A stretch of 64,000 nt of DNA. It comes from an uncultured Pseudomonadales bacterium (GTDB taxonomy: Bacteria; Patescibacteriota; Microgenomatia; UBA1400; CAYXSR01). Location: positions 1,070-65,069 of the forward strand of contig CAYSEI010000003.1 of NCBI GenBank assembly GCA_964430265.1, in the 5' to 3' direction. The translations under genes were made by a program, and so were the position numbers. Each line of letters opens with the position of its first letter. Within the stretch, counting starts at the first letter, position 1. The notes under the pieces are model-generated. The model worked only from the letters and a program-made list of their open reading frames with translations. It searched no databases and was not told the DNA's origin. This document shows, in pieces, positions 11,707 to 53,933 of this stretch.

Positions 11707-12471
11707 TTGCTGGTATTAAAACAATTGTATTATTCTCTAAAATATAATTTCTGTATATTTATGAAAGCAACTGAAAATCTAATCAATCAGCAACAGATTA
11801 AGTTTTTAACTATGCACTATTATTACCGTATAGAGAAATTTGTCAAAAAAGTTGCTTCTAAATATGATAAAAAAAACTTAAAGGTTTTAGACATTGGTGC
11901 CGGCAAATGCTCATATAAAAAACTTTTTAACAAAGCTTCTTATTATTCCACCGATATTCGCCAAAATAAAGACAATAGCATTAATTACGTAACTGATTTT
12001 AATTATGGATTAAAAGACCTTGAAAACAATTCTTTTGATTATATTTTATGTATTCAGGTTTTAGAACACCTTAAATTTCCCCATAAAGCTTTTAAGGAAA
12101 TGAATAGATTATTAAAACCTGGGGGTAAATTATTTCTATCGACAAACTTTATCGCTCATATGCATATGATTCCCAATGACTATTTCCGCTTCACTAAGTA
12201 TGGGTTAAAACTATTAGGTGAAGAAAACGGTTTTGAAGTAGAACATCTAGCAGAACACGGGGGCATTTTTCATGTTTTGAGTTATACATTAAGCACCCTG
12301 CCTCTAAGAATAATATTCTGCAAAGTAAATTTTTGGTACACTCTTTATTTATTGATTTTCAGCCTACCAATTATATGCTTAAACTTATTAGCAATACTCT
12401 TGGATAACTTTGATAAAGAAAAAAGAATGACGATAAATTACGAAGTCATTTATAAAAAAACATCTTCTTAA
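11707..12471 (+). CDS. Class I SAM-dependent methyltransferase (type 11-like)
   Basis: VLDIGAGKC glycine loop, then FDYILCIQVLEHL. Hydrophobic C-terminus. The start may be the internal Met MKATENL. Confidence 0.65.
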   Translation: MLVLKQLYYSLKYNFCIFMKATENLINQQQIKFLTMHYYYRIEKFVKKVASKYDKKNLKVLDIGAGKCSYKKLFNKASYYSTDIRQNKDNSINYVTDFNYGLKDLENNSFDYILCIQVLEHLKFPHKAFKEMNRLLKPGGKLFLSTNFIAHMHMIPNDYFRFTKYGLKLLGEENGFEVEHLAEHGGIFHVLSYTLSTLPLRIIFCKVNFWYTLYLLIFSLPIICLNLLAILLDNFDKEKRMTINYEVIYKKTSS

Positions 12472-12491
12472 TCTCCCCTATCCTTATCAAT

Positions 12492-13946
12492 TTACCTAAA
12501 ATCAAGCTGTTTGCTAAAGTAACGCTTAACAAAACGCAAATAATATTTAAAAACATCCCAATTGGTTAAAGCATATTGTATTTTCATCAGCATCCACTGG
12601 GGCGTAAAAACCAGACTGTAAAATTTACGGATGTATTCTTTTAATTCTTTGTTTTTTAAATCCGTTTTTACAATTGGCTGGCGCATGTCATATTTTCCCC
12701 AATCTTTTGTTTTTAGCCAGTTTTTTTCATTGGCTTCTTTAAAAAGAGGTGTTCCCGGATAAGGGATTACAATAGTAGTCTGCCAGCTGTCAATTAATTT
12801 TTTTTGTACTAGATCTTTAAAAAATTGGTAAGTGTTTTCAATATCTTTTTCTTCTTCCCAGGGATAGCCAATCATTACTGTTACATGCGGATTTAAGCCT
12901 GCTTTTTTTGCATTTTTTAAATTGGGTTCAATCTGTTCCACTTTTAAACCTTTGTTTATTTTATCCAGAGTTTTCTGGTTAGCTGATTCAAGTCCATAAA
13001 GTAAGAAGCGGAAGCCGGCTTTGCGCATCATTTGGTAGTCTTTTTTTGTTAGGTTGCTGTTAAAACGCATATTGCAATTTATCCTGACTTTTTTATTTAA
13101 TCCTTTTTTAATCATTTTTTCACAAAACTCATTTAGCCAGTTACCAACAGGAAAAGTTCCTGAATCATCCATGATTTCTTTTATTGAGTATTTTTTAACT
13201 AATTCCTCCACTTCTTTTATTGCCTTATCAACAGAAATAGTTCTGCACTGGGGGTATAAGTTTGCCGGCCAGCTGCAAAAAGTACACTTCCCCCACCAGC
13301 AGTCGCGTGAAAACATAGTATATGTACCCGGCAAGCTGCGGTAATTTGAGTTTTTATATGCATAAGTCTTCCAGTTTGTTAGCTCCCTGTCTATTAAAGG
13401 AAGATTGCTTAAATCTTTTTTAAGCTGGAATTTTCCTGTATTTAATATTTTTCTATTTTTCTTGTACCATATACCTGGTTTAAGCTTTTTTCCTTTTTCT
13501 ATATGCTTAACAACACTTAAAAGCAGATAATCATAGTCTCCTCCGGTGAGAATATAGTCGGCCTGTGAGTTATTCAAAGTTTCTTTTGGTCTAGCTGTTA
13601 CATGATCTCCTGCTAAAATAATTGTTAATTGCTTGTTTATTTTTTTTAATTTCTCAATTATTTGCCAGTGTTTTTTAATTACTGGTGTTTTTGTTTCTAA
13701 AAAAAGAATATCCGGATTAAAATCAAATAATTTGCTCTCCCATTTTTTGTATTGCATCTGCTTGTTTATTCCGTCCAACCATAAAATCTCGTATCCAGCA
13801 TTTTTAAGCATTGTAGCTGCATAAGCAGGAATTATCGGATAGGCTGTCCAAGGGGTTTTTGCCCATTGAAACTGCCTGTTTTGGGCAAGCAGGGCTGTTC
13901 CTTTTTTTGATTCTAATTGAGGATAGCCAATTGCTATTTTCATCAT
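12492..13946 (-). CDS. B12-binding-domain radical SAM protein (class B radical SAM family)
   Basis: The N-terminal cobalamin-binding-like domain begins MKIAIGYPQ. The radical SAM CxxxCxxC is CWWGKCTFC. The ORF could start at 13967, but that leaves only 18 bp to the divergent GT gene. Confidence 0.75.
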   Translation of the reverse strand: MMKIAIGYPQLESKKGTALLAQNRQFQWAKTPWTAYPIIPAYAATMLKNAGYEILWLDGINKQMQYKKWESKLFDFNPDILFLETKTPVIKKHWQIIEKLKKINKQLTIILAGDHVTARPKETLNNSQADYILTGGDYDYLLLSVVKHIEKGKKLKPGIWYKKNRKILNTGKFQLKKDLSNLPLIDRELTNWKTYAYKNSNYRSLPGTYTMFSRDCWWGKCTFCSWPANLYPQCRTISVDKAIKEVEELVKKYSIKEIMDDSGTFPVGNWLNEFCEKMIKKGLNKKVRINCNMRFNSNLTKKDYQMMRKAGFRFLLYGLESANQKTLDKINKGLKVEQIEPNLKNAKKAGLNPHVTVMIGYPWEEEKDIENTYQFFKDLVQKKLIDSWQTTIVIPYPGTPLFKEANEKNWLKTKDWGKYDMRQPIVKTDLKNKELKEYIRKFYSLVFTPQWMLMKIQYALTNWDVFKYYLRFVKRYFSKQLDFR

Positions 13947-13985
13947 TTTTAGTATACCATTAGCCAAATATTGTAAAATAGGGGT

Positions 13986-14972
13986 ATGAAATCTGTAAGT
14001 GTAATTTTAGCTACCTTAAACAGCGGTGATATTTTAGATAAGTGCTTGTCCTCTGTGCGCAGTCAAGAATATAACCAAGATAAAATTGAGATTATTGCTG
14101 CAGACGGCGGGTCCACTGACGCAACTTTGGACATCTTAAAAAAATACAAAGCGCAAATTATTCCGGAAAATACGGGGAATCCAGAAGCTGCAAAACTTCT
14201 GGCACTTAAAAAAGCAAAAAACGAAATTATTCTGCATATTGACGATGATACTGTCCTTCCCAACAACAAATGGCTGAAAAACATGCTTGATTGTTTTGCA
14301 AAAGAACCAGAAGCTGTTGCCTGCTACCCTTGGCGATATACGTATAGGAAAAAAGATAAATTTTTAAATAGGTATTTTGCACTTTTTGGAGTTAATGATC
14401 CTCTTGCATATTTTCTAAAAAAAGCAGACAGACAGGATTACCTGCCTCCCAAAGACAAGTACAAATTAAAAGGAAAAGCTACTGACAAGGGAAAATATTT
14501 TTTGGTCGAGTTTAATAAAAATAATCTGCCGACTGTAGGTGCAAACGGATTTTTAATTAAAAGAAAAATCTTAAACAAAGTTTTGCAAAATAAAAAACAC
14601 TTTTTTCATATTGATGCAAATTTAAAATTAGTTAAAAAGGTTTTTAACAAATACATTGTAGTTAAAAATAATGTTTTACATTTAAGCGGTGGTTCACTTT
14701 TAAAGTATCTTAAAAAAAGATCCCGCTATTTAAATATTGTTAACTTGGAGCAAAAACAAAACCGCATATATTATACTGCTGATGTTAACAAAGACTTTTT
14801 TATGCTTGTCTTGTTTGCTATCTATGCAAACACTTATATAGGTCCTCTTTTAGTCTCTTTTAAAGGCTTTTTATCTAAAAAAGACCCGGCTTGGTTTTTG
14901 CATCCGATTATTAATTTTTTGATTGCCTGGATATATTTTATTAACGTATTAAAATCATGGCTGAAAAAATAA
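13986..14972 (+). CDS. Glycosyltransferase family 2 (1 of 5 tandem paralogs)
   Basis: VSVILATLN...IIAADGGSTD. GT-A fold N-terminal signature. Confidence 0.75.
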   Translation: MKSVSVILATLNSGDILDKCLSSVRSQEYNQDKIEIIAADGGSTDATLDILKKYKAQIIPENTGNPEAAKLLALKKAKNEIILHIDDDTVLPNNKWLKNMLDCFAKEPEAVACYPWRYTYRKKDKFLNRYFALFGVNDPLAYFLKKADRQDYLPPKDKYKLKGKATDKGKYFLVEFNKNNLPTVGANGFLIKRKILNKVLQNKKHFFHIDANLKLVKKVFNKYIVVKNNVLHLSGGSLLKYLKKRSRYLNIVNLEQKQNRIYYTADVNKDFFMLVLFAIYANTYIGPLLVSFKGFLSKKDPAWFLHPIINFLIAWIYFINVLKSWLKK

Positions 14973-15925
14973 CACCGCAAATTTCTATTGTCATCTGTAC
15001 CTTTAACCGTGCTGAGAGTCTAAAAAATTGCTTACAATCATTGACCAAGCAAACTTTTTCTGATTTTGAAGTAATAATTGTTGACGGCGGATCGCAAGAC
15101 AAAACACCACAGATAATTGAAAATTACAAAAACAAATTAAATATAAAAGTAGTTATTAATAAATCGAAAAATATTGCTAAACTAAGAGACTGTGGATGGA
15201 GGCAAGCTGAAGGAAGATATATTTCCTGGATTGACGATGATGTGGTTGCCTCACCAAACTGGGCGGAAACTGTTTTTAATGTGCTTAAAAACAACAAAAA
15301 CATCACGGGTGTGACTGGTCCGACATTGATTCCCAAAGAAATTCTGCAAAATCGTGACGTATTCTTTTTTCATAATAAAAAAGACTTGCTTGCAAAGTTT
15401 TGGCAAAACTTTGTTTTAGAAGGAAAAGAAAAGGACCCAGGACAAATTTTAAAAAATGGATTTTGGACGCCGGGATCCAATTTTTCCGAATCCACAAAAC
15501 TAGAAAAATCTGTTGAGGTTGATTTTTTGGAGGCTTGTAACATGACTTTTAAAAAAAGTCTGGTGGAAAAAGTGAACGGTTTTAACCCGGATTTTTTTAA
15601 AGAATGGTCTGAGGCGGATCTGTCGCAAAGAATTAAAAAACTTGGATACAAGTTGCTTTTCCATCCCAAAGCAGTTGTTGAGCACCACATTTCCAAAAAA
15701 GGCGCTTTTCACGGACGGACAACAGCAAAAGAAAGAATGCAGGATTTTTTTAACTTTTATTTTAAACATGCCTATAAGTTTAAATATTTATGGAGGTTTT
15801 TAATTTTGGTGTTTATACAAAATCTTTACTATACATACAAAGCAATAAAAGACAAAAATATTTCTTGGCTGGGCAGCTGGTTGGGAACAATTAAAGGATT
15901 TAAATATATATGCAAAAAGAATTAA
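14957..15925 (+). CDS. Glycosyltransferase family 2 (2 of 5)
   Basis: ISIVICTFNRAESL, VIIVDGGSQD, WIDDDV (DxD). Confidence 0.75.
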   Translation: MAEKITPQISIVICTFNRAESLKNCLQSLTKQTFSDFEVIIVDGGSQDKTPQIIENYKNKLNIKVVINKSKNIAKLRDCGWRQAEGRYISWIDDDVVASPNWAETVFNVLKNNKNITGVTGPTLIPKEILQNRDVFFFHNKKDLLAKFWQNFVLEGKEKDPGQILKNGFWTPGSNFSESTKLEKSVEVDFLEACNMTFKKSLVEKVNGFNPDFFKEWSEADLSQRIKKLGYKLLFHPKAVVEHHISKKGAFHGRTTAKERMQDFFNFYFKHAYKFKYLWRFLILVFIQNLYYTYKAIKDKNISWLGSWLGTIKGFKYICKKN

Positions 15926-16929
15926 GCTCTATCATCATTCCCACACACGGATATACCCAAGAATTAAAAGATTGCTTGCTTTCAATTAAAAAAAATACCC
16001 AGGCTGATTATGAGTTGATTGTTGTAGCAACCGAAGAACCGCCTCAGAAATTCTTTAATAATCTGGGTGTAAAATTAATCAAAACCAAAGAGTTCGGCCC
16101 GGCAAAAAAAAGAAATATTGCTGTAAAAAAATCCATTGGAAAATATTTAATATTTTTGGATTCAGATACTGTGGTTGATAAAAATTGGCTTAACCCTGTA
16201 GTTGGTTATCTAAACAAAAATCCAAATGTTGGTGGCGGACAGTTTAAATTATTAAAATATTCGGACAAAAATGTTTTTGATTCTGCAGGAGAAAAAATTA
16301 CACCCTGGGGGTTCTTGGTAGAACGTGCACGCAGCAGCAAAGACAAATTACAATTTGACAAGGTAGAAAAAATATTTAGTATTAAGGGTGCTGCCATGAT
16401 TTTTAAACGTAAAGTGTTTGAAAAAGCAGGCGGCTTTGACCCTAATTACTTTATTTTTTGGGAAGAACCAGACATATGCTGGAGAATTTGGAAAACAGGC
16501 AAGGAAATTGTTTTTCTATACATGGGAAAAGTCTGGCACAAAAAAGAAAAACAAAACAAAAGCTCATATAAAAAAAAGCGCAGCAAAATTACTTATTGGG
16601 GCTGCAGAAACCAGATCATGACTGTTTATAAAAACAGCGTCGGCATAAACAGAATAAGAATGCTTTTTTGTGTTAACCTTGCCTGGCTTTCCTTTTTAAT
16701 ACTTTTCTCTTTAAAAGGGCAGTTTGAACAAAGCAAAGCAATTATTAATGCTTATAAATATATTTTCCCCAATTTTACATCCTTAAAACAAAAAAGAAAC
16801 AAACTAAAGCAAGACCTTGGCAAGAATTTTTATTCGGATAAAAAATGGCTGCCTAAAGTTACAATTAAAAGAGGTTTAAAATGGTATTGGGGTAAAGGAT
16901 CTAGTTATTTATTAAATAAGCCTTTTTAA
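15910..16929 (+). CDS. Glycosyltransferase family 2 (3 of 5)
   Basis: SIIIPTHGY...FLDSDT. C-terminal TM segment. Confidence 0.7.
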   Translation: MQKELSSIIIPTHGYTQELKDCLLSIKKNTQADYELIVVATEEPPQKFFNNLGVKLIKTKEFGPAKKRNIAVKKSIGKYLIFLDSDTVVDKNWLNPVVGYLNKNPNVGGGQFKLLKYSDKNVFDSAGEKITPWGFLVERARSSKDKLQFDKVEKIFSIKGAAMIFKRKVFEKAGGFDPNYFIFWEEPDICWRIWKTGKEIVFLYMGKVWHKKEKQNKSSYKKKRSKITYWGCRNQIMTVYKNSVGINRIRMLFCVNLAWLSFLILFSLKGQFEQSKAIINAYKYIFPNFTSLKQKRNKLKQDLGKNFYSDKKWLPKVTIKRGLKWYWGKGSSYLLNKPF

Positions 16930-16930
16930 A

Positions 16931-17905
16931 ATGATTTCTGTAATAATTGTTAATTACAACGGAGCAAAATATATTAAAGACTGTATTAAATCTTTACAGT
17001 CTTCAATCTACAAAAATTTTGAAATAATTTTTGTGGATGATTGTTCAACTGATCAATCATTTAAAATAATTAAAAAATTTAAAAATGTTAAATTAATTCA
17101 AAACAAAAAAAACTTGGGAGCATCGTTATCCAGAAATAAAGGTGCAAAAAGAGCTAAAGGTAACCTTCTATTTTTCCTTGATGTTGACACTAAAACTATT
17201 CCAAGTGCATTAGATAATCTTGCCAAGGAGTTTAACAAAAATGAAACAATGGGAGCAGCACAAGTGCAATTAATTAAAGCAGATAAAAATGTCTTGGATT
17301 CCAGCGGCCACTATTTATCACCTTTTGGCTTCCCTTATGAAACTGGGACAAACAAAAATCCGGACAAATATCAAGAAAAAAGAAAAATATTGGGAGGTAA
17401 ATCCGCCGGATTAATCGTCAGAAAAAATGTGTTTGAAAAAATAAATGGTTTTGATTCGGACTATTTTATTTACGGTGAAGATACTGATCTTTGCTGGCAT
17501 GTTTGGCTATCAGGATTTGAAGTATTTTATTTACCTTCTGTAAAAATATTTCATTTTCAAAAAAGCAGTATTAACAAAAATACAAAAAAAAGAGTTTTTT
17601 ATCAGGGCACTAAAAACAATCTTAATTATTTATTAAAAAACCTTGAGTTGAAAAAGTTCTTTTGGATTATTCCTCTGCATGTTCTGGGATGGATGCTGCT
17701 ATTTTTTAAAAAAGTTTTAACTGGAGAGTTTAAGTTTGCTCTAGCAATTATAAACGGGCTTTTTTGGAATCTTATTAATCTACCCAAAATAATGCAAAAA
17801 AGGGGGATAATAAAAAGTAAAAACATAGACAGAAAAATATTGTTTGGTGAAATAAAAATTGGTAGCCTTTTTAATAAAGGTTTAAGGTGGTTTAAAAATG
17901 TCTGA
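16931..17905 (+). CDS. Glycosyltransferase family 2 (4 of 5)
   Basis: ISVIIVNYNGAKYIKDC, FVDDCSTD, FLDVDT. Confidence 0.75.
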   Translation: MISVIIVNYNGAKYIKDCIKSLQSSIYKNFEIIFVDDCSTDQSFKIIKKFKNVKLIQNKKNLGASLSRNKGAKRAKGNLLFFLDVDTKTIPSALDNLAKEFNKNETMGAAQVQLIKADKNVLDSSGHYLSPFGFPYETGTNKNPDKYQEKRKILGGKSAGLIVRKNVFEKINGFDSDYFIYGEDTDLCWHVWLSGFEVFYLPSVKIFHFQKSSINKNTKKRVFYQGTKNNLNYLLKNLELKKFFWIIPLHVLGWMLLFFKKVLTGEFKFALAIINGLFWNLINLPKIMQKRGIIKSKNIDRKILFGEIKIGSLFNKGLRWFKNV

Positions 17906-18743
17906 ACCACCCTCTGTTTCTATTATTATAGTTAACTACAACGGCAAAAATATTATTACAGACTGCCTGAATACTGTTATTAAAACAGACTACCCTAGTT
18001 TTGAAATTGTGGTGGTTGATAATAATTCAAATGACGGCAGCCAAAGAATTTTAAAAGAAAAATATAAAAAACAAATCAAGTTGGTTTGTACAGATAAAAA
18101 CTTGTATTTTACCGGCGGATCAAATTTGGGAGCATTAAAAGCAAACAACCAGATACTTGTTTTTTTAAACAGTGACACCGAAGTTGAGCCTGACTGGCTA
18201 AAAAAGCTTGTCGCCTGTCATCTAAAAAACGGCAGAAACTCACTGATTCAGCCTAAAATTCTTTTATACAAGAATAAAAAAACAATTGACAATATCGGCG
18301 GCAAATACATTTTTCCTGGTTTTGGCAAGGGCATGCGAAAAGTGGGAAAAATTGATTATGTAAATGGAACTTGTTTTTTAATTGACAAAGACTTCTTTTT
18401 TGAACTGGGAGGATTTGATGACTGGTTTAAAATGCATTATGAAGACGTTGATCTCAACCTCCGAGCCCAAAAACAATCAAGTAGTGTGCATTATTGTCCG
18501 GAAAGCATAATTTATCATAAAGGATCCTTAACCGTTAAAACCAAAATCAGCAAACAAGAACTCATATATCACATTCGTAAAAATCGATTAAAAACAGTAT
18601 TTAAAAACTTTCAGGGATTGAATAGAATCCTGCGTCTTCTTTGTCTTGCTCCTTTTTATCTTTATTGGACAGTTGTACAACCAATCACAATAAAGTCTAT
18701 TATTTCCTTTTTCAGAAGTTTAAAAAGACAACCACCTGCTTAA
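17898..18743 (+). CDS. Glycosyltransferase family 2 (5 of 5)
   Basis: VSIIIVNYNGKNIITDC, VVVDNNSNDGS, FLNSDT. Confidence 0.75.
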   Translation: MSEPPSVSIIIVNYNGKNIITDCLNTVIKTDYPSFEIVVVDNNSNDGSQRILKEKYKKQIKLVCTDKNLYFTGGSNLGALKANNQILVFLNSDTEVEPDWLKKLVACHLKNGRNSLIQPKILLYKNKKTIDNIGGKYIFPGFGKGMRKVGKIDYVNGTCFLIDKDFFFELGGFDDWFKMHYEDVDLNLRAQKQSSSVHYCPESIIYHKGSLTVKTKISKQELIYHIRKNRLKTVFKNFQGLNRILRLLCLAPFYLYWTVVQPITIKSIISFFRSLKRQPPA

Positions 18744-19661
18744 ATCCTTATTAATCAAGCTTACCATTTTTTCAACATCCTTATGATAGTAATTAATTAA
18801 CTTAATTCGTGTTTCTTTCTGCATTTTTGGATAGCCAGTTGCTTTTGTTTTGGGAAATGTAATTATTTTTTGATAAATCTTGTATAATCTTTTTTTTTCA
18901 AAAAGCCAATCAATAAAATCTGGCAGCAGTGTATTTTTTCTATCCGACATCCACTTGGCAATTTTATATAAAAAGCTTTTAATTTTAGGATGCTGTATTT
19001 GTTTTGAAGGATTTACTTTTTTATGAATAACTGAAGGCACAAAATTAGTATCTATTTTTAAAAACTCATACATTTCCCTGACTACTTTTTTTGGTTTGTT
19101 CTTTATATCGTCAAAAAAAACTATATAAATGTTTTTCTGGGGAAAAATATCAAAAGCGTTTTTCAAGTGTTTGTAATATTTTCCTTTTTTTGCATTTAAT
19201 TTTTTCCATTCATCATTTTTAACTGCTTGATTAAATTCATAATCCACTCTAACCCTGACTGATTGTTTACGATACCAGTATAAAGAGTAAAGCATGTCAA
19301 TCGGATTCCTGATAGCTATAATTATTTTGGCATCGGGAAAATGCTTTTTTATTCTTTTTAAAGCTTTTTTGCTGCGAATATATCCTGGAGAAAATTCACC
19401 TCTAATTTTCTTTTTTTGTGCTGCTGGAAATTGTTTTAAATACCAATCAATTCCTTTATTATAGTTTGATTCTTTTTCCCAGTTTGCAGCAATATTTCTT
19501 TTTATTCTTTTTTTTGTGTTTTTTTCACTAAAAAAAGCTATTTCTTTACGGGTTTTTTGTGCGGAAAAAAGTACCTGCGGGTGTTTTTGCAAGCATTTGC
19601 TGATCCATGTAGATCCACATTTTTCAAAACCTATTCCGATAAAATCAATTTTGTTTTCCAT
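18720..19661 (-). CDS. PAPS-dependent sulfotransferase family protein
   Basis: 5'-PSB-like loop IGFEKCGSTWIS and 3'-PB-like RNPIDMLYSLYWY. The likely start is the internal Met MENKIDF. The longer ORF reaching 19709 would overlap the flippase gene by 65 nt. Confidence 0.7.
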   Translation of the reverse strand: MENKIDFIGIGFEKCGSTWISKCLQKHPQVLFSAQKTRKEIAFFSEKNTKKRIKRNIAANWEKESNYNKGIDWYLKQFPAAQKKKIRGEFSPGYIRSKKALKRIKKHFPDAKIIIAIRNPIDMLYSLYWYRKQSVRVRVDYEFNQAVKNDEWKKLNAKKGKYYKHLKNAFDIFPQKNIYIVFFDDIKNKPKKVVREMYEFLKIDTNFVPSVIHKKVNPSKQIQHPKIKSFLYKIAKWMSDRKNTLLPDFIDWLFEKKRLYKIYQKIITFPKTKATGYPKMQKETRIKLINYYHKDVEKMVSLINKDLSRWLSF

Positions 19662-20910
19662 TTTTAACCAATTTAAAAATAATCCAGAAAACAGATAATA
19701 AAACTCCAACTAACAATGAAAAAATTGAGTTTCTGATTATCGCATTAATACTATTATGATTAAAATATATTAATGCTAATTGCATAAATGCAGTTATTGC
19801 AGCAATAAATCCAATAACTTTTTCTTCTAATGCTAATAAAAAGCGTGTCATCAAATTAAAAATCGCCAGTAGCCCCGTAAAAACAGCAAAGGAAAACATA
19901 TATTTAACTGCTTCTTTATATTGATTGCCATAAAGGGCAGTAATAAAAAAATCAGGAAACAAACGAAACCCAACAATTCCTAAAATTGTTATTGAAAAAA
20001 CAAACCCTATCGATAATAACAAAGTTTGTTTTAAGCGCTTTTTATTTTTCTGATATTTAATAAAAAGTGGATAAGAAACCATTAAGATTGCGGAAGCGCC
20101 AAAGAAAATAATTTTACCTAATACAGAAAGCGCTGAATAAAGCCCTGATTGTCTTTCAGAAAAAAAATGGCGTACCAGTAAAATGTCAGATGAATAAAGT
20201 GATGTTAAGGAGAAATTACTAATCAATGCAAGTCCAGAAAATTTCCAGAAACTTTTTTTTATTTTTATTTTTTCAGTTTTCTGATCACCCCATATTTTTT
20301 GCACAAAAATATAGTTTATCAATAATGAAACAACTGCTAAAACTATCCATCCAGATAAAGCTGTTGTTTCTTTTCCCCCTAGTAAAAGTAAAATAAAAGT
20401 TATCAAAAGCTTAAGAAAAGTTGATAAAACACTGACCGCAGCACTATAAACAAACTTAAGCCTGCTTTGCAATGCTGCACCAAAAACCAAAGGTAAAAAA
20501 CTAAATCCCAGCCATAAAGCATAAGAATAAATCAGCATATTATTTTCTAAATAAAGAAATTTTTTAATAAAAGGAGATAAGAGAAAAAAAACTATTTCAA
20601 AAATTATAGTTATTTTTATTGCTAACTTTGATAAGGATTTAACTGCAGAAAGGGTTTTTTCTTTTTTAATTTCACCAATAAAGCTCACTACTGATAAACT
20701 AAATGCACCTGTAAATACAGAAATAAAATAATTAAGTGTAATTATACTTTCCAGCCTGCCGTATTCTGCTGGAGCCAAAAAACGGCCAGCAACAAAATGG
20801 TATAAATAATTTAAAAAAGCTGTTATTAAGTTAGCAACCAATATAATAAAGCTACCTTGAAGCAATTTATTTTTTAGTTTTGTTTTTACTTTATTTTCTA
20901 AATTAAGCAT
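19645..20910 (-). CDS. Wzx-like (MOP superfamily) polysaccharide / oligosaccharide-lipid flippase
   Basis: 421 aa with about 12 predicted TM helices, and a basic N-terminus typical of polysaccharide biosynthesis protein families. Confidence 0.6.
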   Translation of the reverse strand: MLNLENKVKTKLKNKLLQGSFIILVANLITAFLNYLYHFVAGRFLAPAEYGRLESIITLNYFISVFTGAFSLSVVSFIGEIKKEKTLSAVKSLSKLAIKITIIFEIVFFLLSPFIKKFLYLENNMLIYSYALWLGFSFLPLVFGAALQSRLKFVYSAAVSVLSTFLKLLITFILLLLGGKETTALSGWIVLAVVSLLINYIFVQKIWGDQKTEKIKIKKSFWKFSGLALISNFSLTSLYSSDILLVRHFFSERQSGLYSALSVLGKIIFFGASAILMVSYPLFIKYQKNKKRLKQTLLLSIGFVFSITILGIVGFRLFPDFFITALYGNQYKEAVKYMFSFAVFTGLLAIFNLMTRFLLALEEKVIGFIAAITAFMQLALIYFNHNSINAIIRNSIFSLLVGVLLSVFWIIFKLVKNGKQN

Positions 20911-20988
20911 AAATAACTAGAATTTCTTATTCTTAAAAATGATGATAAACTTAAAATTAAGTATAGCAAATTATTGTTTAATTAATTT

Positions 20989-22623
20989 ATGAAGATAAAG
21001 AATTTTAATTTTAAAAAGTGGTTGAAAAACAACAAACTTAACCTAGTAATTCTTTTTGTTCTGGTAATTGTCAGTTATGCAAATAGTCTAGACAACCAAT
21101 TTGTTTCTGACGATATTTACGGAATCGTCAATAAAGAAAATCTGGGACAGTTTAGCTATATCAGAAATAGGTTCCCTATGGTTATTAGACCAATTTTATA
21201 CACTATTGTGTTTAAAATATTTGGCTCCAACCCAGCTTTTTTCAGACTAATAAATGTTTTTTTTCATCTAGGAAATGTTTTTCTTGTCTATTTAATTGTT
21301 TCCCTTTTATACAACAATACTGCTGCATTAATCAGCAGCAGCTTAACAGCAGTACACCCTATTTTAATTGAAGCTGTTTCCTGGATTTCCGGGGGACCTT
21401 ATTCCACCTATACCTTTTTTGGCCTGGCTGCATTTCTCTTTTTTATTCTCTCGCAAAACAAGCAAAAATATTATTGGTTTTTTTTAGCTAGTTTGGTTTT
21501 TGCTTTTCTGACTTCTCCTATTTCTATAGTAATACCAATAATCCTGGCTGCATTTGCTTTGACTCACAAAAATTTTAAGTTTGATTGGAAAATGATTTTG
21601 CCACCTTTAATAATTGGCTTAATTGCTTTTATAATCTTTTTTCCCAGCATTTCAAAAAGAATGTATGCTTTACAAACTTCTTATTATCAAAAAACAACTT
21701 TTGTAAACCCTTTATTTCTTATTCCTACAGCAATAACTGGATATCTGGAACTGATCTTTTGTCCCAATAATTTAACTTTGTATCATTCAGAAATCAATAG
21801 CATTGGGCAAATTCAGTACACTTTAAGAATTATTTTTTTTCTTCTTTTTATTGGCTTGACTATTTATCTGTATTTTAAAAAAAGAAAAGATTCTTTTTGG
21901 TTGATGCTTTTTTTAATTGCTTTAGGCCCTTTTCTTACTCCTTTTGGAATTTCCTGGCTTTTGGCTGAACGCTATGCATATTTTTCTGCAATTGGTGTTT
22001 TTGTTTTTATCGGTATTCTTATAGATAAAATTAATAAAAAATTCAAATTAAAGGATGTGCCCATTTTTTTTGTATTAGGACTTGTTGTTCCTCTATTAAC
22101 AATAAAAACAATTGTTCGCAACAACGACTGGCAAAATCAGGACACATTGTGGATTGCGGCTGCCAAAACTTCTCCATCCAGTCCGCAAAACAACAATAAC
22201 CTGGGCGATTTGTATGCTAGAAAAGGTAATTTGCAAAGAGCTGAATACCATTTCAGTAAAGCACTTCAGCTTAAACCGGGATATGCAGATGCTCACCACA
22301 ATCTTGCCAATATTTATTGGAAGCAAGGTGAATTAAATAAAGCAATTGAAAACTATCAAAAAGCCTTAGAAATTAATCCCAATATTTGGCAGTCACACCA
22401 AAACTTGGCTGCAGTCTATATTCAAAAAGAGGACTACCCAAATGCTTTAAAACATTTGGAGTCAGGCTTAGAGATCAACCCTTCTTCTCCTAAACTTTTA
22501 TATAACGCTGCTATTTTATACAGCAAAATTGGAGAAGAAGAAAAAACAAAGAACATGCTTGAACAAATTCTACAAATAGATCCCAACAATTTAGAAGTAA
22601 GACAGCTTCTAAATCAGTTTTGA
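20989..22623 (+). CDS. GT-C type (PMT/GT39-like) membrane glycosyltransferase fused to C-terminal TPR repeats
   Basis: About 400 aa of polytopic membrane domain, then at least four TPR units (NNLGDLYARKGNLQRAEYHFSKALQLKPGYADAHHNLANIYWKQGELNKAIENYQKALEINPN...). Confidence 0.5.
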   Translation: MKIKNFNFKKWLKNNKLNLVILFVLVIVSYANSLDNQFVSDDIYGIVNKENLGQFSYIRNRFPMVIRPILYTIVFKIFGSNPAFFRLINVFFHLGNVFLVYLIVSLLYNNTAALISSSLTAVHPILIEAVSWISGGPYSTYTFFGLAAFLFFILSQNKQKYYWFFLASLVFAFLTSPISIVIPIILAAFALTHKNFKFDWKMILPPLIIGLIAFIIFFPSISKRMYALQTSYYQKTTFVNPLFLIPTAITGYLELIFCPNNLTLYHSEINSIGQIQYTLRIIFFLLFIGLTIYLYFKKRKDSFWLMLFLIALGPFLTPFGISWLLAERYAYFSAIGVFVFIGILIDKINKKFKLKDVPIFFVLGLVVPLLTIKTIVRNNDWQNQDTLWIAAAKTSPSSPQNNNNLGDLYARKGNLQRAEYHFSKALQLKPGYADAHHNLANIYWKQGELNKAIENYQKALEINPNIWQSHQNLAAVYIQKEDYPNALKHLESGLEINPSSPKLLYNAAILYSKIGEEEKTKNMLEQILQIDPNNLEVRQLLNQF

Positions 22624-23591
22624 ACTTTTTTAAAAAAGAACCCTTGTAAGAATTTAATTCCGTAAACAATATGTGTCAAAAAAATTGCCGGAATGGTTAA
22701 TAAACCGATCAAAATATTTTTACTATTTCTCCATACTTGAATAAAAGTTAAAACCAACAACACAACATACACTAACAAAACCAAAGAATAGACAAAAAAC
22801 AAGGGCGGGTAAATAAAATAGGTTATTCCTCCGCCAAAAAAACCGATGGTGAAGAATACAGGAACCCAATATCCTAACCTATTTGATGTTTTAGGAAAGA
22901 TTTTGGCAAAATATCCTCTTTGCCTCCCATAGCTAGAAATTTGTTTTAAATGCGGTGCAAATATTTTTCTACGGTGGTGATAAACAACAACTTCAGGATC
23001 ATAAGCTATTTTTTTGTTTAGGCTATAAACTAGTTCGCAGCAAAGTTTGGTATCTTCACCAGGCCAATATTTGGAATCAAATCCTCCAAGTTTTGCAAAA
23101 TCCTTTTTTCTAATAAACAAGTTAAATGTAGGATAGTCATCAACAAAACATTTTTTAGTAGGATGACAACGGTAAATTCCTGCACCGCCTGCGCCTAAAG
23201 GCGTTTTCCATACCCATCCAGAAACTTTCTCTCCAATATCATCATCTTCAGGTGTTAGCCCCGGACCGCAAATTCCTGCAATTGATTGATCAGAAAAATT
23301 TTCAAGTGCTTTTTCCAGCCAGTCTTTTTGAGGATAAGCATCATCGTCAATAAAAGCAAGAATTTTACCTTCTGCTTTTTTTGCAGCCAGATCTCTTTTT
23401 TCTGCCGGACCTTTGTTCTTCCCCGAAGCAAGCACCTTTATCCATTCAGGATAATCATTTTCATCTTTTTTATCGGGGATAATGATTACTTCAAAATCTT
23501 TGTAAGTTTGTTTTTTCAAAGCAGGTAGAGTCTTTTGCAAAAAGTATTTGCTTGGATTTTTAAAAGGAACAATAACCGATACTTTAGTCAT
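22614..23591 (-). CDS. Glycosyltransferase family 2 with C-terminal membrane anchor
   Basis: VSVIVPFKNPSKYF...AFIDDDAY, then a TM tail. Confidence 0.7.
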   Translation of the reverse strand: MTKVSVIVPFKNPSKYFLQKTLPALKKQTYKDFEVIIIPDKKDENDYPEWIKVLASGKNKGPAEKRDLAAKKAEGKILAFIDDDAYPQKDWLEKALENFSDQSIAGICGPGLTPEDDDIGEKVSGWVWKTPLGAGGAGIYRCHPTKKCFVDDYPTFNLFIRKKDFAKLGGFDSKYWPGEDTKLCCELVYSLNKKIAYDPEVVVYHHRRKIFAPHLKQISSYGRQRGYFAKIFPKTSNRLGYWVPVFFTIGFFGGGITYFIYPPLFFVYSLVLLVYVVLLVLTFIQVWRNSKNILIGLLTIPAIFLTHIVYGIKFLQGFFFKKVQN

Positions 23592-24321
23592 AATATTTTA
23601 AAATGTTTAAACGGTAGAAAACTGCAATCGTATCATAAAGCATAGACCAGATTGTTCCAAATTTAACACTGGAATAGCCAATTTTTCCAGCATCCATTTC
23701 CACCGGACCGTCATGGATTTTTTTATAACCTAATCTGTGAGCAACCGCCAGCATTTCAATATCAAAAGCATATTTTTTTACCACCAACTTGGGCAAAACC
23801 TTCTCCAAAACTTGTCTCTTAAAAATTTTTATTCCTCTTTGACAATCAGTAACCTTTAAACCAAACAGAAACCTGGTTAATGTGTGGTATCCCCAACTTA
23901 ATATTTTCCTTATCAAGGGATATCCTTTTACTTTGGAAGCAGAATGCCTTATTGATCCTACAATCACGTCAGAATTGTACCAAAGCATATGTTCCAGCAA
24001 AAGTCTCAGTCCTAAAGGATCTATTTCCATTCCAGCATCCAAAAATGCAACTAAATCACCTTTGGTTTTTTTCATGCCATAGCGCACTGCATGCCCTTTT
24101 CCTCTATTTTTGGAATATCCGTGTATTTTTATTTTTTTGTTTGCCAGCTTTTGTGCTTTTTCAAATGTTTTATCCACTTTTCCGTCAACAATACAAATAA
24201 TTTCATAGTCATATTTTATTTTGTCCAAAGTTTTTTTTATCTTTTTCAAGTCACGGACAATAGTTTTTTCTTGACGATAAGCAGGGATTACTACAGAAAG
24301 GAGTTTATTATTTTTTGACAT
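23584..24321 (-). CDS. Polyprenyl-phosphate glycosyltransferase (DPM1/GtrB-like GT2)
   Basis: LSVVIPAYRQEKTI...GYSKNRGKGHAVRYG...FLDAGME. Compact 245-aa DPM1-like architecture. Confidence 0.7.
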   Translation of the reverse strand: MSKNNKLLSVVIPAYRQEKTIVRDLKKIKKTLDKIKYDYEIICIVDGKVDKTFEKAQKLANKKIKIHGYSKNRGKGHAVRYGMKKTKGDLVAFLDAGMEIDPLGLRLLLEHMLWYNSDVIVGSIRHSASKVKGYPLIRKILSWGYHTLTRFLFGLKVTDCQRGIKIFKRQVLEKVLPKLVVKKYAFDIEMLAVAHRLGYKKIHDGPVEMDAGKIGYSSVKFGTIWSMLYDTIAVFYRLNILKYYD

Positions 24322-24389: not shown

Positions 24390-24420
24390 AAAAAAACTCC
24401 CGGACAACAATATCCGGGAG
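24390..24420 (-). terminator. Rho-independent terminator downstream of the 24439..25389 gene
   Basis: Plus strand reads A7-ctcccgga-caacaata-tccgggag. On the minus strand this gives an 8-bp GC-rich stem followed by U7. Confidence 0.55.
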
Positions 24421-26775: not shown

Positions 26776-27240
26776 TTATCTTGTAACAGTAATTGAGTCT
26801 ACTAATTCTCCAGAAGCAGAAGCAACAATCCTACCATTAGCATCTTCATAAATTGTATATTGTGTATTTGCCTGAGTTCCGCTGACCGGATCTGCTGGCA
26901 TTTCAGCAATATAAGTCGGCACAATGGTTTCTGTTCCTGCTTCGTTCGTTGCTGCAGCTAAATTAAAACAAGGAGCTGCTGTACCAATGCAAGTCGGTGA
27001 ATCCGGGAAGTTGCTGGTACTATCATCAGCATCAGTATCTGGCAAATTACCATTGTGTTCAGCTGAAAACTGATAAACAGCGTTGGTAATTGAATACAGG
27101 TCGCTGCGACGCTGTGTGTCTCTGGCATTAGCAAATTGTCTTCCCGGGTTAACCGCGACTAAAACAATTGCTGCCAAAATAGCAATAACACCAATAACAA
27201 CCAAAAGCTCAATTAAGGTAAAACCTTTTTTTAGTTTCAT
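26776..27240 (-). CDS. Type IV pilin / pseudopilin (prepilin-type N-terminal cleavage and methylation domain)
   Basis: MKLKKG|FTLIELLVVIGVIAIL, with Glu at +5 and a hydrophobic alpha1 helix. Confidence 0.85.
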   Translation of the reverse strand: MKLKKGFTLIELLVVIGVIAILAAIVLVAVNPGRQFANARDTQRRSDLYSITNAVYQFSAEHNGNLPDTDADDSTSNFPDSPTCIGTAAPCFNLAAATNEAGTETIVPTYIAEMPADPVSGTQANTQYTIYEDANGRIVASASGELVDSITVTR

Positions 27241-27306
27241 ACGTTTTCACCTCCTTTCATTTCTCTTAGTTTAATATTAACAAGCCGGCTATTTTTGTCA
27301 AATAGA

Positions 27307-27729
27307 TCAGCGTACAACTTCGATTGTCCCTGTTCCAACTTCGCTTTCTGCTCTTACTACAATTCTTCCTTCAGAATTTTGATAAATATCATATCCCGTG
27401 TCTTCTGCCGTCCCTGTACTTGGATCTTGAGGAACTTCAGTTATATACGTGGGAACAATTATTGATCCCAAATCATAACAGGAAGCTCCGGTTCCAATAC
27501 AAGTAGATGTTTCCGGAAAGTTAGTTGGGAAAATTCCTTTATTTTCTGTTACGTATTCATAAACAGCATTAGTTATAGAATACAAATCACTGCGTCGCTG
27601 TGTATCTCTGGCATTGGCAAATTGTCTACCGGGGTTAACTGCAACCAAGACAATGGCAACCAATATAGCAATGGTTCCAATAACTACCATGAGTTCTACC
27701 ATGGTAAAGCCTTTGTTATTTTTATTCAT
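27307..27729 (-). CDS. Type IV pilin paralog
   Basis: MNKNNKG|FTMVELMVVIGTIAIL. The first 60 mature residues are near-identical to the neighbouring pilin (AVNPGRQFANARDTQRRSDLYSITNAVY), and the C-terminus diverges. The likely start is the internal Met at 27729 rather than the ORF start at 27753. Confidence 0.85.
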   Translation of the reverse strand: MNKNNKGFTMVELMVVIGTIAILVAIVLVAVNPGRQFANARDTQRRSDLYSITNAVYEYVTENKGIFPTNFPETSTCIGTGASCYDLGSIIVPTYITEVPQDPSTGTAEDTGYDIYQNSEGRIVVRAESEVGTGTIEVVR

Positions 27730-28105
27730 TATCTCCTCCTTGTGTGTTTTCATTTATTGCAGATCCTGTTGCTTGTTTGTTTTCTTCTGCTTTTTTATCT
27801 TCTTGTTCTGTTTCATTTTCTTTGTTATTTTGGTCATTTTGTTCTTCATTATTTTCAACTTCATTTATCAGCTGTTTTATTTTTTCTTTCTCAATCCCAC
27901 TATTTTCAAAGGAATTTATAGTTGTAACCGCCTGGTCCACTTTATTTTTATTTAAAACCGGGTTTTTTTGCTGAACTATTTGTTCATTAATATTTTGTGA
28001 TGTTTGCCAGCTATTTATTATTGTATACCCAGAAAAGATAAATAAAAAGCCCAAGGCAAATATAAAAACAATACTGATAATAAATGTTTCACTAATTTTT
28101 TTCAT
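27722..28105 (-). CDS. Small membrane-anchored protein with an acidic, low-complexity tail
   Basis: 127 aa with one N-terminal TM, then a Glu/Asn/Lys-rich region. Sits between the pilin and pilO-like genes. Confidence 0.3.
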   Translation of the reverse strand: MKKISETFIISIVFIFALGFLFIFSGYTIINSWQTSQNINEQIVQQKNPVLNKNKVDQAVTTINSFENSGIEKEKIKQLINEVENNEEQNDQNNKENETEQEDKKAEENKQATGSAINENTQGGDNE

Positions 28106-28664
28106 TTAATTCCTCAAAATCCTGATCAACATAAATAAATAAATTGAATTCTGCTCGAACTTCTTTATCTTCAATATCCGGAGAAGTCAGGGTAAATTTC
28201 TGCGATCGGAAAAAGTAGGGTGATTTCTGTAACAAATTCAAGCTGTTTAATATTTTTGGCCAACTATCTTCGATTACTAATGTTAAAGGAAGATATGCAT
28301 TGCCATTAGCATCTTTCAAAGGCATATCTGAATCAAATGTAAAAATCTTTAAATCCGCTGATTTCTCAATTTTATTTATTAGATCAATAAAATCAACTAT
28401 TGATTCCGCATTGGGGAAACTTTTTTCAATTATTTCTTTTTTTGTTTGAATGTTTTCTAAATCTACCATAGTTTTCTGATAATTTTGCTGACTGATCTTC
28501 TGTGCCATTAATTCAGAAGAAACTTTTTGGATATTTTCCGCTTTTAAAGGTAAAAAATATAAAACAGCTATATTGGCAATTAACAATATAACGTCAACTC
28601 CGATTATTATTTTTAAAAATGAACTTAGAAATGGTTCTTTTTTCTGCTGTTTAATTTTTTTCAT
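28092..28664 (-). CDS. PilO-like type IV pilus assembly protein
   Basis: 190 aa with a short cytoplasmic N-terminus, one TM, a coiled coil and a periplasmic domain. Lies immediately downstream of pilMN. Confidence 0.5.
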   Translation of the reverse strand: MKKIKQQKKEPFLSSFLKIIIGVDVILLIANIAVLYFLPLKAENIQKVSSELMAQKISQQNYQKTMVDLENIQTKKEIIEKSFPNAESIVDFIDLINKIEKSADLKIFTFDSDMPLKDANGNAYLPLTLVIEDSWPKILNSLNLLQKSPYFFRSQKFTLTSPDIEDKEVRAEFNLFIYVDQDFEELNEKN

Positions 28665-30090: not shown

Positions 30091-30198
30091 TTGGGCAGAT
30101 TAACTCTATAACTTAAGTATAGTAATAAATTATGCGCTTGTCCATTATTTGCTCTCATTATATCAGAAGGTTTGAAAATTGCTGCAGAATGCGTTTTA

Positions 30199-31530: not shown

Positions 31531-32147
31531 AACATAAAAAAAGACTTGCCTCACAAAAAGGGTTTACACTAATTGAGCTTTTAGTAGGCATGACCATAGC
31601 AGTTAGTTTGGTTGGTCTGATTATTCTTTTACAAGTTCATTTATCCGAAGACCAGCTGTTCTTATTAAAAAAAAGCTTATCCAACCAAGGAGCAAATGAA
31701 AGTTTAACCCAAATAAAAAAAGAATTACGAAATGTTCAACCAGGAGAAAATGGTGATTACCCATTATTTATTGCCCAAGACTATCAAATCGGGTTTTATA
31801 CGGATGTTGATTTTGACTCAGAAATTGAAAGAGTCCGCTATTTTCTGCAAAACGGTGTCCTGTCAAAAGGAACAATTGAACCTAATGAAAGCTATCAATA
31901 TTTAGAAGAAAACGAAATAATTAAAATTATTAATGAAGACGTTAGAAATACTGATCAACCGCTTTTCTCTTTTTACAACGGAAATTGGCCTGATGATCAA
32001 GAAAATAATCCGCTTGAAACACCAGCACCTTTTGATGAGATTAAGCTGATTAAAATATATTTACAAATTAATACTGAATATGATCCAAACAGTGATTTTA
32101 TATCCGAGTCTTTTGTCAGTCCTAGAATTTTAAAGGAAAACCTATGA
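31527..32147 (+). CDS. Minor pilin (prepilin-type N-terminal cleavage and methylation domain)
   Basis: QKG|FTLIELLVGMTIAVSLVGL. Confidence 0.7.
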   Translation: MKHKKRLASQKGFTLIELLVGMTIAVSLVGLIILLQVHLSEDQLFLLKKSLSNQGANESLTQIKKELRNVQPGENGDYPLFIAQDYQIGFYTDVDFDSEIERVRYFLQNGVLSKGTIEPNESYQYLEENEIIKIINEDVRNTDQPLFSFYNGNWPDDQENNPLETPAPFDEIKLIKIYLQINTEYDPNSDFISESFVSPRILKENL

Positions 32148-35402: not shown

Positions 35403-35403
35403 T

Positions 35404-37466: not shown

Positions 37467-37485
37467 AAAATCATCTTAACATTTA

Positions 37486-53868: not shown

Positions 53869-53933
53869 TCTACTTTAGATATTTAAATTTTTTCCTCTTT
53901 TAAATATTTTTTTCTCCTGTTAAAATATATTTA

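Follow-up and report, generated by a model that had tools for sequence, protein, structure and literature searches.

Two interleaved conserved gene cassettes in a predicted envelope glycosylation locus of Microgenomates type

Gene content and integrity of the locus

The gene cluster considered here, presumably devoted to glycosylation of the cell envelope in a bacterium of the Candidate Phyla Radiation (CPR, or Patescibacteria), occupies positions 11707-24321 (~12.6 kb) of a 64,000-nt stretch of contig CAYSEI010000003.1, which was analysed at its full length and is referred to below as the window. Listing of open reading frames (ORFs) returned 12 uninterrupted frames within the cluster, with coordinates exactly as first claimed, and the assignment of this region as a glycan-biosynthesis locus, proposed earlier from the nucleotide sequence, was borne out in that all named domains were confirmed by Pfam, except for the family label GT39 (Table 1). 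The Pfam scan took in nearly all non-overlapping ORFs with a length of 120 aa or more throughout the 64 kb. Seven glycosyltransferases of family GT2 are designated GT2a to GT2g; the radical SAM (S-adenosylmethionine) enzyme and the GT-C glycosyltransferase carrying tetratricopeptide repeats (TPR) are abbreviated as rSAM and GT-C-TPR, respectively. All seven GT2 proteins match PF00535, scoring 65-102 bits where the cutoff is 23.3.

Table 1. Genes of the locus and the adjoining hairpin, with the matches behind each assignment (TM, transmembrane)
Feature	Position	Strand	Basis
Class I SAM methyltransferase	11707-12471	+	Pfam Methyltransf_23 9e-16, Methyltransf_11 6e-13
B12-binding-domain radical SAM enzyme (rSAM)	12492-13967	-	Radical_SAM PF04055 6.5e-20, 72 bits; B12-binding PF02310 35.7 bits (cutoff 32.1)
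GT2a glycosyltransferase, two C-terminal TM helices	13986-14972	+	PF00535 1.4e-22
GT2b glycosyltransferase	14957-15925	+	PF00535 7e-29
GT2c glycosyltransferase, one TM helix	15910-16929	+	PF00535 8.8e-19
GT2d glycosyltransferase	16931-17905	+	PF00535 4e-29
GT2e glycosyltransferase	17898-18743	+	PF00535 1.7e-26
Sulfotransferase	18720-19709	-	Sulfotransfer_1 4e-20
Wzx-type MOP flippase, polytopic	19645-20910	-	Polysacc_synt_3 PF13440 1.5e-14, 54.4 bits; Polysacc_synt PF01943 1.2e-13, 51.6 bits
GT-C with TPR domain (GT-C-TPR)	20989-22623	+	PMT_2 PF13231 32 bits and TPR families
GT2f, C-terminal multi-TM anchor	22614-23591	-	PF00535 6.6e-18
GT2g, soluble DPM1/ArnC/GtrB-like GT2	23584-24321	-	PF00535; PDB and NCBIfam matches
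Terminator-like hairpin	24397-24420	-	10-bp stem, 6 GC pairs, T-run; consensus scan only

The genes GT2a to GT2e follow one another so closely (13986-18743, plus strand) that their stops and starts overlap or abut. Alignments with orthologues span nearly the full length of the proteins (residues 1-326 of 328 for GT2a, 8-322 of 322 for GT2b, 4-322 of 325 for GT2f, and 8-245 of 245 for GT2g), and since counterparts in other genomes can be aligned over the whole length, the genes of the locus are not pseudogenes. The possibility of pseudogenised GT2 paralogs, raised earlier, finds no place among uninterrupted ORFs aligned in this way. As to the start positions, database gene calls begin at M17 for the sulfotransferase (19661; P0001, 313 aa, 100% identical) and at M8 for rSAM (13946; P0231, 484 aa), while for the methyltransferase the TTG start at 11707 is doubtful and the ATG at 11761 is likely the true one.

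On the left the locus is bordered by the stop codon of the [FeFe] hydrogenase gene at 11702; the segment 8987-11702 encodes a NuoF-like flavoprotein and the hydrogenase large subunit (Fe_hyd_lg_C 5e-89), with 4 bp left between its end and the methyltransferase ORF. On the right the locus is delimited by the hairpin read from 24420 to 24397, which closes the upstream minus-strand gene. Rfam and tRNA scans gave no matches, and the promoter scan gave no signal above chance. The divergent start codons of rSAM and GT2a are only ~18-39 bp apart (gap 13947-13985); given such a tiny gap, the two promoters must be situated within adjacent coding sequence, unless transcription of these genes starts farther away. 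The lowest GC content belongs to the genes for sulfotransferase, Wzx, methyltransferase, and GT2d (~28% versus 34.5% outside the locus).

Two cassettes and the age of the glycosyltransferase array

Conservation of the locus was traced with a profile of the rSAM family, which yielded >544 matches in JGI metagenomes, and the gene-order counts given below rest on 29 metagenomic loci, each 12 kb or longer, that were retrieved with this profile (hereafter, long loci). Relative loci are denoted by codes such as L088 (Candidatus Shapirobacteria contig, GCA_043817235.1), L008 (CAYXSV010000042.1), and L009 (CAZCGQ010000015.1). The typical order in the long loci, all on one strand, is Wzx>GT2g>GT2f>rSAM>GT2a. 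GT2f is the gene most tightly linked to rSAM, its orthologue (35-49% identity) standing directly upstream in 22 of the 29 cases; a Wzx homologue occurs in 15 long loci, a GT2g orthologue in 12, and a GT2a-like gene adjoins rSAM from the downstream side also in 12. The same block was found in L008, in a WWE3 genome (L001/L010), and in L089, with Wzx adjoining the GT2g orthologue in L008, L010, L012, L004, and L089. Identities to the L008 proteins amount to 42% for Wzx, 75% for GT2g, 58% for GT2f, 48% for GT-C-TPR, 36% for GT2a, 41% for the sulfotransferase, and 64% for rSAM, while GT2g orthologues of WWE3 and other loci are 48-52% identical. The most conserved gene of the locus is rSAM: each of the 119 other clusters listed shows 51-63% identity, and their named hosts are Beckwith-, Shapiro-, and Gottesmanbacteria and Patescibacteria.

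Within the window this block is represented by the minus-strand genes GT2g, GT2f, Wzx, and rSAM (cassette 1), to which the sulfotransferase is added, and the plus-strand genes (methyltransferase, GT2a-e, and GT-C-TPR) form a second, Shapirobacteria-type cassette. In the window GT2a and rSAM are divergent; in the canonical arrangement GT2a comes after rSAM. The locus is composed, then, of two old conserved cassettes interleaved on opposite strands, and examination of related genomes showed cassette 1 to be kept in L008, L089, WWE3, and many of the metagenomic loci, and the second, with its gene order, in L088. Since the sulfotransferase is present in none of the 29 long loci and the methyltransferase in 3, both are accessory genes. 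Loci L008 and L009, with 34-36% GC, are the closest copies of the CPR-type locus, and the label "uncultured Gammaproteobacteria" attached to them looks doubtful; in L008 the locus additionally contains genes for an IS200-like transposase and a PaaX/Cas2-like protein.

The gene order of the second cassette is reproduced in L088, where GT2a is divergent from rSAM and followed by GT2b, c, d, and e and then by GT-C-TPR, the GT2e orthologue being fused to a methyltransferase. The matrix of identities between GT2 proteins of the window and of L088 is cleanly diagonal, assigning them one to one (GT2a 57%, GT2b 54%, GT2c 44%, GT2d 47%, and GT2e 52%) with off-diagonal values of 18-36%, and orthologues of GT2a (57%) and GT2b (59%) were found in L009 as well. 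The seven GT2 proteins of the window share just 21-32% pairwise identity, the nearest paralogue of GT2d being GT2c with 32%, and there are no DNA repeats among their genes, only similarities of 25-55 nt at 70-80% confined to motif-coding sites. The original prediction attributed the five back-to-back genes to recent tandem duplication and diversification, a reading whose sole support is their tandem arrangement and common Pfam family; low identity between paralogues, lack of repeats at the DNA level, and far closer collinear orthologues in other genomes refute it. Because the collinear orthologues of L088 are much closer than the paralogues, GT2a-e should be regarded as an ancient collinear assembly line, and the fact that this array is not young changes the reading of similar glycosyltransferase arrays in CPR genomes.

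The DxD motif reads DDD in GT2a (residue 86), GT2b, and GT2f (residue 82), DSD in GT2c, and DVD in GT2d; the corresponding position reads N-S-D in GT2e, and GT2g has D-A-G-M-E where the dolichol-phosphate mannose synthase (DPMS) has D-A-D-L-Q. Hydropathy peaks indicative of TM helices are located at residues 272-290 and 304-322 of GT2a and at 266-315 of GT2f.

Properties of the individual enzymes

The DPM1-like GT2 postulated for the locus corresponds to GT2g. Its matches in PDB include DPMS of Pyrococcus (5mlz, 4e-17, residues 8-228 versus 25-240), GtrB (5e-11), and ArnC, and among GT2a, GT2f, and GT2g, for which PDB was searched, it is the only one with polyprenyl-phosphate glycosyltransferases as best matches, generic GT2 proteins alone being returned for the other two. 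NCBIfam models PgfS (58.5 bits, cutoff 500), ArnC (42.9 bits, cutoff 529), PpgS, AglJ, and DolP-hexose transferase were all matched below cutoff, and families acting on polyprenyl phosphate rank higher for GT2g than for the other six GT2 proteins. Judging from these similarities, GT2g is a candidate polyprenyl-phosphate glycosyltransferase. The Wzx flippase was likewise substantiated, since it belongs to the MOP/Wzx family by Pfam scores above cutoffs and by NCBIfam matches to MOP flippase and TuaB, and hydrophobic segments extend across its whole 421-aa length.

For the enzyme described earlier as a PMT-like GT-C with TPR, the GT-C fold stood up to structural comparison and the GT39 label did not. 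AlphaFold2 models (pLDDT 92 for the full length; pLDDT 90 and pTM 0.92 for the TM domain) predict 11 TM helices, a Lys-rich N-terminus, and a TPR domain located outside from approximately residue 384. Foldseek search with the model of the TM domain gave ArnT as the best match (5f15/5ezm, E 1e-4, TM-score ~0.5), followed by AglB, STT3, ALG9, Pmt4, AftD, PglB, and Emb; Pmt1, Pmt2, and Pmt4 are distant fold matches with E of 0.1-0.9. When the full-length model was used, as well as in the PDB sequence search, the matches were dominated by TPR proteins, and the TM domain alone gave no match in the PDB sequence search. In Pfam only PMT_2 was detected in the TM region, with no match to PF02366 (PMT), MIR, or DUF1736 at E<=0.01, and STT3 is absent from the Pfam and NCBIfam matches. 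Homologues are counted in hundreds, and the best 120 listed are 39-48% identical over the TM domain; those listed consist of 500-630 aa with C-terminal TPR families, the named hosts being Beckwithbacteria, Parcubacteria, Moranbacteria, Microgenomates, and Omnitrophota, and several are labelled "protein O-mannosyl-transferase" by JGI. In an alignment of 45 homologues D41-D42 of the first outer loop are invariant, as are H123, P124, E128, R328, Y329, and Y331, and E327-R328...Y331 is invariant or nearly so.

The same succession of elements is known for TMTC proteins, animal O-mannosyltransferases that have 11 TM helices with the N-terminus inside and C-terminal TPR on the lumenal side (PMC7801869). 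Motifs M1 (DD) and M7 (ERxxY) of that family are present in GT-C-TPR, and H123-P124...E128 corresponds to the quoted TMTC segment "AVHPIHT". M6 is approximated by PxxxP, "DW" of M5 is replaced by YHSE, and M2 (SHKSYRP), M3 (RxD), and M4 (KE), which contact mannose and phosphate in TMTC, are unrecognisable. Structural modelling thus places GT-C-TPR, by architecture, among ArnT-fold, TMTC-like enzymes rather than in GT39. A second PMT_2-type GT-C devoid of TPR is encoded at 45373-46500 on the minus strand, 21 kb from the locus (PMT_2 4.9e-12, weak PIG-U/PMT matches).

The domains required for the proposed B12/radical-SAM methylation are present in rSAM, but methylation itself did not gain support, the nearest NCBIfam models being HpnJ (165 bits, cutoff 578; residues 43-485) and BchE (142 bits), both far below cutoff. 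HpnJ and BchE are not methylases, and the methylase models (PhpK, RiPP C-methyltransferase, Mmp10-like, HpnR, and KedN5) score 29-87 bits with cutoffs of 280-700. As the best families are HpnJ and BchE and the methylase models score lower, the methylase role is not established; the nearest PDB entries (9ccb and AprD4) are uninformative. The invariant motif of the family, C216-x4-C221-x2-C224 (DCWWGKCxFCSW), differs from the canonical Cx3Cx2C. Hydropathy analysis revealed no TM helix in rSAM, and in the methyltransferase it outlined a C-terminal hydrophobic anchor at ~202-231 with a peak of 2.5 at 213-231. Orthologues of the latter (46-47% identity) adjoin B12-rSAM paralogues in L087/L090, L106, and L120. 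Locus L087/L090 (Beckwithbacteria contig Ga0210057_1000101, 10001-20792) is a single glycan locus with three B12-binding rSAM paralogues; behind each of them stands a GT2 gene, a class I methyltransferase gene, or both, and an asparagine-synthase-like gene is present as well. The pairing of rSAM with a methyltransferase is repeated in L106 and L120.

The sulfotransferase retains what is needed to bind 3'-phosphoadenosine-5'-phosphosulfate (PAPS). In an alignment of 32 sequences W19 of the 5'-phosphosulfate-binding (5'-PSB) motif, then G88, E89, and Y94, and finally K112, R118, P120, and S126 of the 3'-phosphate-binding (3'-PB) motif are invariant and N119 is nearly so, the motifs being GxxKxG(S/T)TW, GE...Y, and K...RNPxDxxYS; the PAPS-binding residues, on which the earlier assignment depended, are therefore intact. 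Searched against PDB, the family profile matched 3rnl (4e-50), the heparan-sulfate N-sulfotransferase (NST, 1e-33), and 3-O-sulfotransferases 3-OST-1/3/5 (~1e-30), and E89 is aligned with Glu of the catalytic motif "fEKSANYF" of NST. No TM helix was found by hydropathy. By its motifs the protein looks like a functional cytoplasmic PAPS-type sulfotransferase related to heparan-sulfate NST/3-OST. The wider family comprises 4,421 clusters of 50% identity at E<=1e-30. Relative loci were sought with an alignment of 12 sequences. The closest members (36-44% identity) reside in glycosyltransferase-rich loci of WWE3, Saccharibacteria, and low-GC metagenome-assembled genomes doubtfully labelled "Gammaproteobacteria", and members with 30-34% identity belong to DPANN Aenigmarchaeota; in glycosyltransferase-rich loci the homologues often adjoin PMT_2-type GT-Cs.

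Proposed pathway, its alternatives, and known parallels

The components of the locus belong to known superfamilies, and as a whole it follows the scheme of lipid-linked glycan assembly. On balance, albeit with modest confidence, we regard the locus as an intact cell-envelope glycosylation system built of two ancient, widespread cassettes of CPR/Patescibacteria (Microgenomates) type and accessory tailoring genes, in which the glycan is initiated by GT2g and transferred by GT-C-TPR. From the gene set we infer a monophosphate-linked lipid carrier and the following order of steps. GT2g would load a sugar on polyprenyl phosphate at the cytoplasmic face, and the membrane-anchored GT2f and then GT2a-e would extend the lipid-linked glycan. 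This start of the pathway agrees with the absence of an initiating phosphoglycosyltransferase: neither Bac_transf (PF02397, WbaP-like) nor Glycos_transf_4 (PF00953, WecA/MraY-like) was found anywhere in the 64 kb, and the Pfam tables obtained for related loci list none either. The lipid-linked sugar or sugars would be tailored in the cytoplasm by rSAM, the membrane-anchored methyltransferase, and the sulfotransferase, because SAM and PAPS are available there, and because the sulfotransferase and rSAM are devoid of TM helices and the methyltransferase is anchored C-terminally. The Wzx-type MOP protein would flip the tailored product, and the TMTC/ArnT-like GT-C-TPR would hand the sugar or glycan, once flipped, over to an acceptor outside the cytoplasm, most likely selected by the external TPR domain and probably a protein. 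The chemistry performed by rSAM, the nature of the acceptor, and sulfation as such are, in this scheme, suggestions drawn from the genes. A bolder version, which we put forward tentatively and consider rather doubtful, holds that the core of Wzx, GT2g, GT2f, and rSAM represents an undescribed CPR pathway, in which rSAM remodels the sugar before flipping (by C-methylation or by HpnJ-like rearrangement), the TMTC-like GT-C glycosylates surface proteins, and sulfation occurs in this organism with PAPS possibly coming from the host.

Several observations weigh against the pathway outlined. All NCBIfam matches in the locus, those of GT2g included, score well short of the curated cutoffs, and D-A-G...E stands in GT2g in place of the DAD metal motif. 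Hydropathy revealed no hydrophobic segment in this protein of 245 aa, while GtrB, ArnC, and archaeal DPMS possess a C-terminal TM anchor. Human DPM1 also lacks such an anchor and is tethered by a partner; since the GT2g gene overlaps by 8 nt the gene of multi-TM GT2f, tethering of GT2g by GT2f in the DPM1/DPM3 manner is, by analogy, possible. PMT_2, ArnT, and TMTC-type GT-Cs transfer single sugars from polyprenyl-phosphate donors, not oligosaccharides, and we know of no direct bacterial precedent for a chain of six to seven glycosyltransferases ending in such a GT-C. An initiator and a polymerase could be encoded elsewhere in the genome, outside the 64-kb window. Besides, the link of cassette 1 to GT-C-TPR is loose, the latter being detectable in 4 of the 29 long loci.

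The last circumstance is also what one would expect from two independent systems sharing the locus, namely, a single-sugar system of GT2g, flippase, and GT-C-TPR, and a Wzx-dependent polysaccharide built on undecaprenyl diphosphate by GT2a-f with the methyltransferase, sulfotransferase, and rSAM, whose initiator and polymerase or ligase lie elsewhere. This division appears less probable than a single pathway, though it has to be taken seriously: the closest solved folds, ArnT and, more distantly, PMTs, use monosaccharide donors, further PMT_2 GT-Cs occur dispersed, one in the window at 45373-46500 and more in its relatives, and single-sugar systems of three components have precedents in ArnC/ArnT, GtrB/GtrC-type, CsbB/YfhO, and TMTC. 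The donor in the TMTC model is dolichyl phosphate mannose (PMC7801869). However, the search for a Wzy polymerase or an O-antigen-ligase-type protein (Wzy_C) was as fruitless in the 64 kb and in the related-locus Pfam tables as that for the initiator, Wzx in most loci directly adjoins the DPM1-like GT2g and not the GT2b-e array, and in L088 the GT2b-e operon ends with GT-C-TPR. It is unlikely, in turn, that the locus yields a membrane glycolipid or decorates a wall polymer instead of making a glycoprotein glycan, with rSAM remodelling a lipid-linked sugar in the HpnJ manner and TPR serving assembly or partner binding in place of acceptor choice. HpnJ as the best NCBIfam match of rSAM, the weak matches of GT2e to HpnI and of GT2b to HpnB, and the action of ArnT, the best fold match, on a lipid are consistent with such a product, and no obvious Ser/Thr-rich acceptor gene was noticed beside the locus. 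Yet the HpnJ score does not reach one third of the cutoff set for that family, no hopanoid genes were found in the window, and the combination of GT-C with lumenal or external TPR is tied to protein O-glycosylation in TMTC, the one family studied in this respect (PMC7801869).

A separate matter is whether sulfation takes place at all. The sulfotransferase could stay idle for want of PAPS, the glycan being non-sulfated and the gene a recent, perhaps transient, acquisition. The GC content and the restricted occurrence of this gene given above are compatible with its being idle, and so is the lack of PAPS supply: ATP sulfurylase and APS (adenosine-5'-phosphosulfate) kinase were not found in the 64-kb window or in CPR-type relative loci, and, to the detriment of the pathway proposed here, APS kinase is missing from every such locus also when the E. 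coli CysC sequence, validated by its strong matches, is used as a probe. In 13 non-CPR loci (L016, L058, L054, L049, and 9 bacterial) cysC lies within 10 kb of the sulfotransferase homologue, the cysC-like genes occupying 9434-9952 in L016 of Aenigmarchaeota, directly upstream of the sulfotransferase, and 8205-8663 in L058, while none of the small ORFs beside the sulfotransferase or rSAM in the relatives proved to be an APS kinase. The paper on sulfur metabolism (PMC10811913) contains nothing on PAPS in CPR. Nevertheless, an idle enzyme is improbable, since the residues for PAPS binding and catalysis remain intact and do not vary over 32 members including other CPR copies, and glycan loci of WWE3, Saccharibacteria, and their relatives retain homologues with 36-44% identity, which argues for selection. 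Moreover, the genome beyond the window may hold PAPS genes, and CPR bacteria are known scavengers, so that uptake of PAPS or APS is conceivable. The segment 166-7175 of the window encodes a YeeE/YedE-type Sulf_transp protein, thioredoxin-like proteins, a GCV_H-like protein, DsbD_2, and an ArsP_1 permease, none of which belongs to PAPS synthesis.

Immediately to the right of the locus a type IV pilus cluster extends over 26776-39621, including two pilins (26776-27240 and 27307-27753), PilM, a further N_methyl protein, PilC, and PilB; a response regulator and a 7TM histidine kinase come next. Pilin was considered as an acceptor and rejected, as adjacency to the pilus cluster is absent in L008, L009, L087, L088, and L089, and the neighbouring proteins have no telling features. 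Two consecutive class A penicillin-binding proteins (Transgly and Transpeptidase) are encoded at 51622-56297, indicating the capacity for peptidoglycan synthesis.

Literature search for a sulfotransferase, O-mannosyltransferase, or B12-rSAM in CPR/Patescibacteria yielded no paper on the topic, one on O-glycosylation in Prevotella being unrelated, and to our knowledge almost nothing is known about envelope glycans of CPR. These bacteria are ultrasmall and mostly episymbiotic, so that their surface is what contacts the host. Three elements of the locus appear to be uncharacterised: the widespread cassette in which a MOP flippase and a B12-type rSAM accompany a DPM1-like GT2; the bacterial TMTC-like GT-C encoded in an operon; and the NST/3-OST-type sulfotransferase residing in CPR-type loci without linked PAPS genes. 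The first of them, strongly conserved and abundant in metagenomes, links a candidate polyprenyl-phosphate glycosyltransferase to a flippase and a B12-type rSAM, a combination without characterised counterpart. Bacterial relatives of TMTC in operons with enzymes that probably build the glycan offer a tractable route to donor and acceptor specificity, and the sulfotransferase raises a testable question as to the source of PAPS in a genome-reduced symbiont.

Among the known systems, heparan-sulfate NST/3-OST and the bacterial 3rnl share with the sulfotransferase of the window the 5'-PSB and 3'-PB motifs and the catalytic Glu within E-x-S/T-x-x-Y; unlike NST/3-OST, the protein described here is prokaryotic, cytoplasmic, and ~300 aa long, has its own C-terminal region, and is encoded without linked PAPS genes. 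TMTC1-4 (CAZy GT105) resemble GT-C-TPR in 11 TM helices, the N-terminus inside, TPR outside, DD in the first outer loop, AVHPIxxE, and ERxxY, and in having ArnT as the closest solved fold, whereas the enzyme of the window is bacterial and placed in an operon with GT2 genes, lacks DUF1736 at E<=0.01 and evident M2-M4, and has Y-H-S-E instead of M5.

In the Agl N-glycosylation pathway of Haloferax volcanii (AglJ, AglG/I/E, AglP, AglR, and AglB) the DPM1-like AglJ initiates the glycan on polyprenol monophosphate, GT2 enzymes extend it, a SAM methyltransferase modifies it, and, after flipping in which a Wzx-like protein is implicated, a GT-C passes it to protein; haloarchaeal glycans can be sulfated. 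The GT2 proteins of the window show weak NCBIfam matches to AglJ, AglG, and DolP-hexose transferase, far below cutoffs; in contrast to Agl, the host is bacterial and the transferase is not STT3/AglB, with no WWDXG domain seen and AglB being a distant fold match. The ArnC/ArnD/ArnE-F/ArnT route, which delivers Und-P-L-Ara4N (Und-P, undecaprenyl phosphate) to lipid A, is similar in the loading of Und-P by a DPM1-like GT2, in cytoplasmic tailoring, flipping, and transfer by a GT-C of the PMT_2 clan, with GT2g aligned to ArnC over residues 6-232 and ArnT as the best GT-C fold match. It differs in employing the SMR-type flippase ArnE/F instead of MOP/Wzx and a deformylase instead of rSAM, methyltransferase, and sulfotransferase, while the window adds six further GT2s and TPR on the GT-C. 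In the tailoring of hopanoid-linked glucosamine by HpnI/HpnK/HpnJ, as in the proposed pathway, a GT2 places the sugar on a lipid and a B12-binding rSAM remodels the lipid-linked sugar, and HpnJ is matched by rSAM near end-to-end; the difference lies in the score relative to the cutoff, the lack of hopanoid genes, Cx4Cx2C, and the context of Wzx and DPM1-like GT2. A further parallel is provided by the conversion of decaprenyl-P-ribose to decaprenyl-P-arabinose, in which a lipid-linked sugar is tailored as well.

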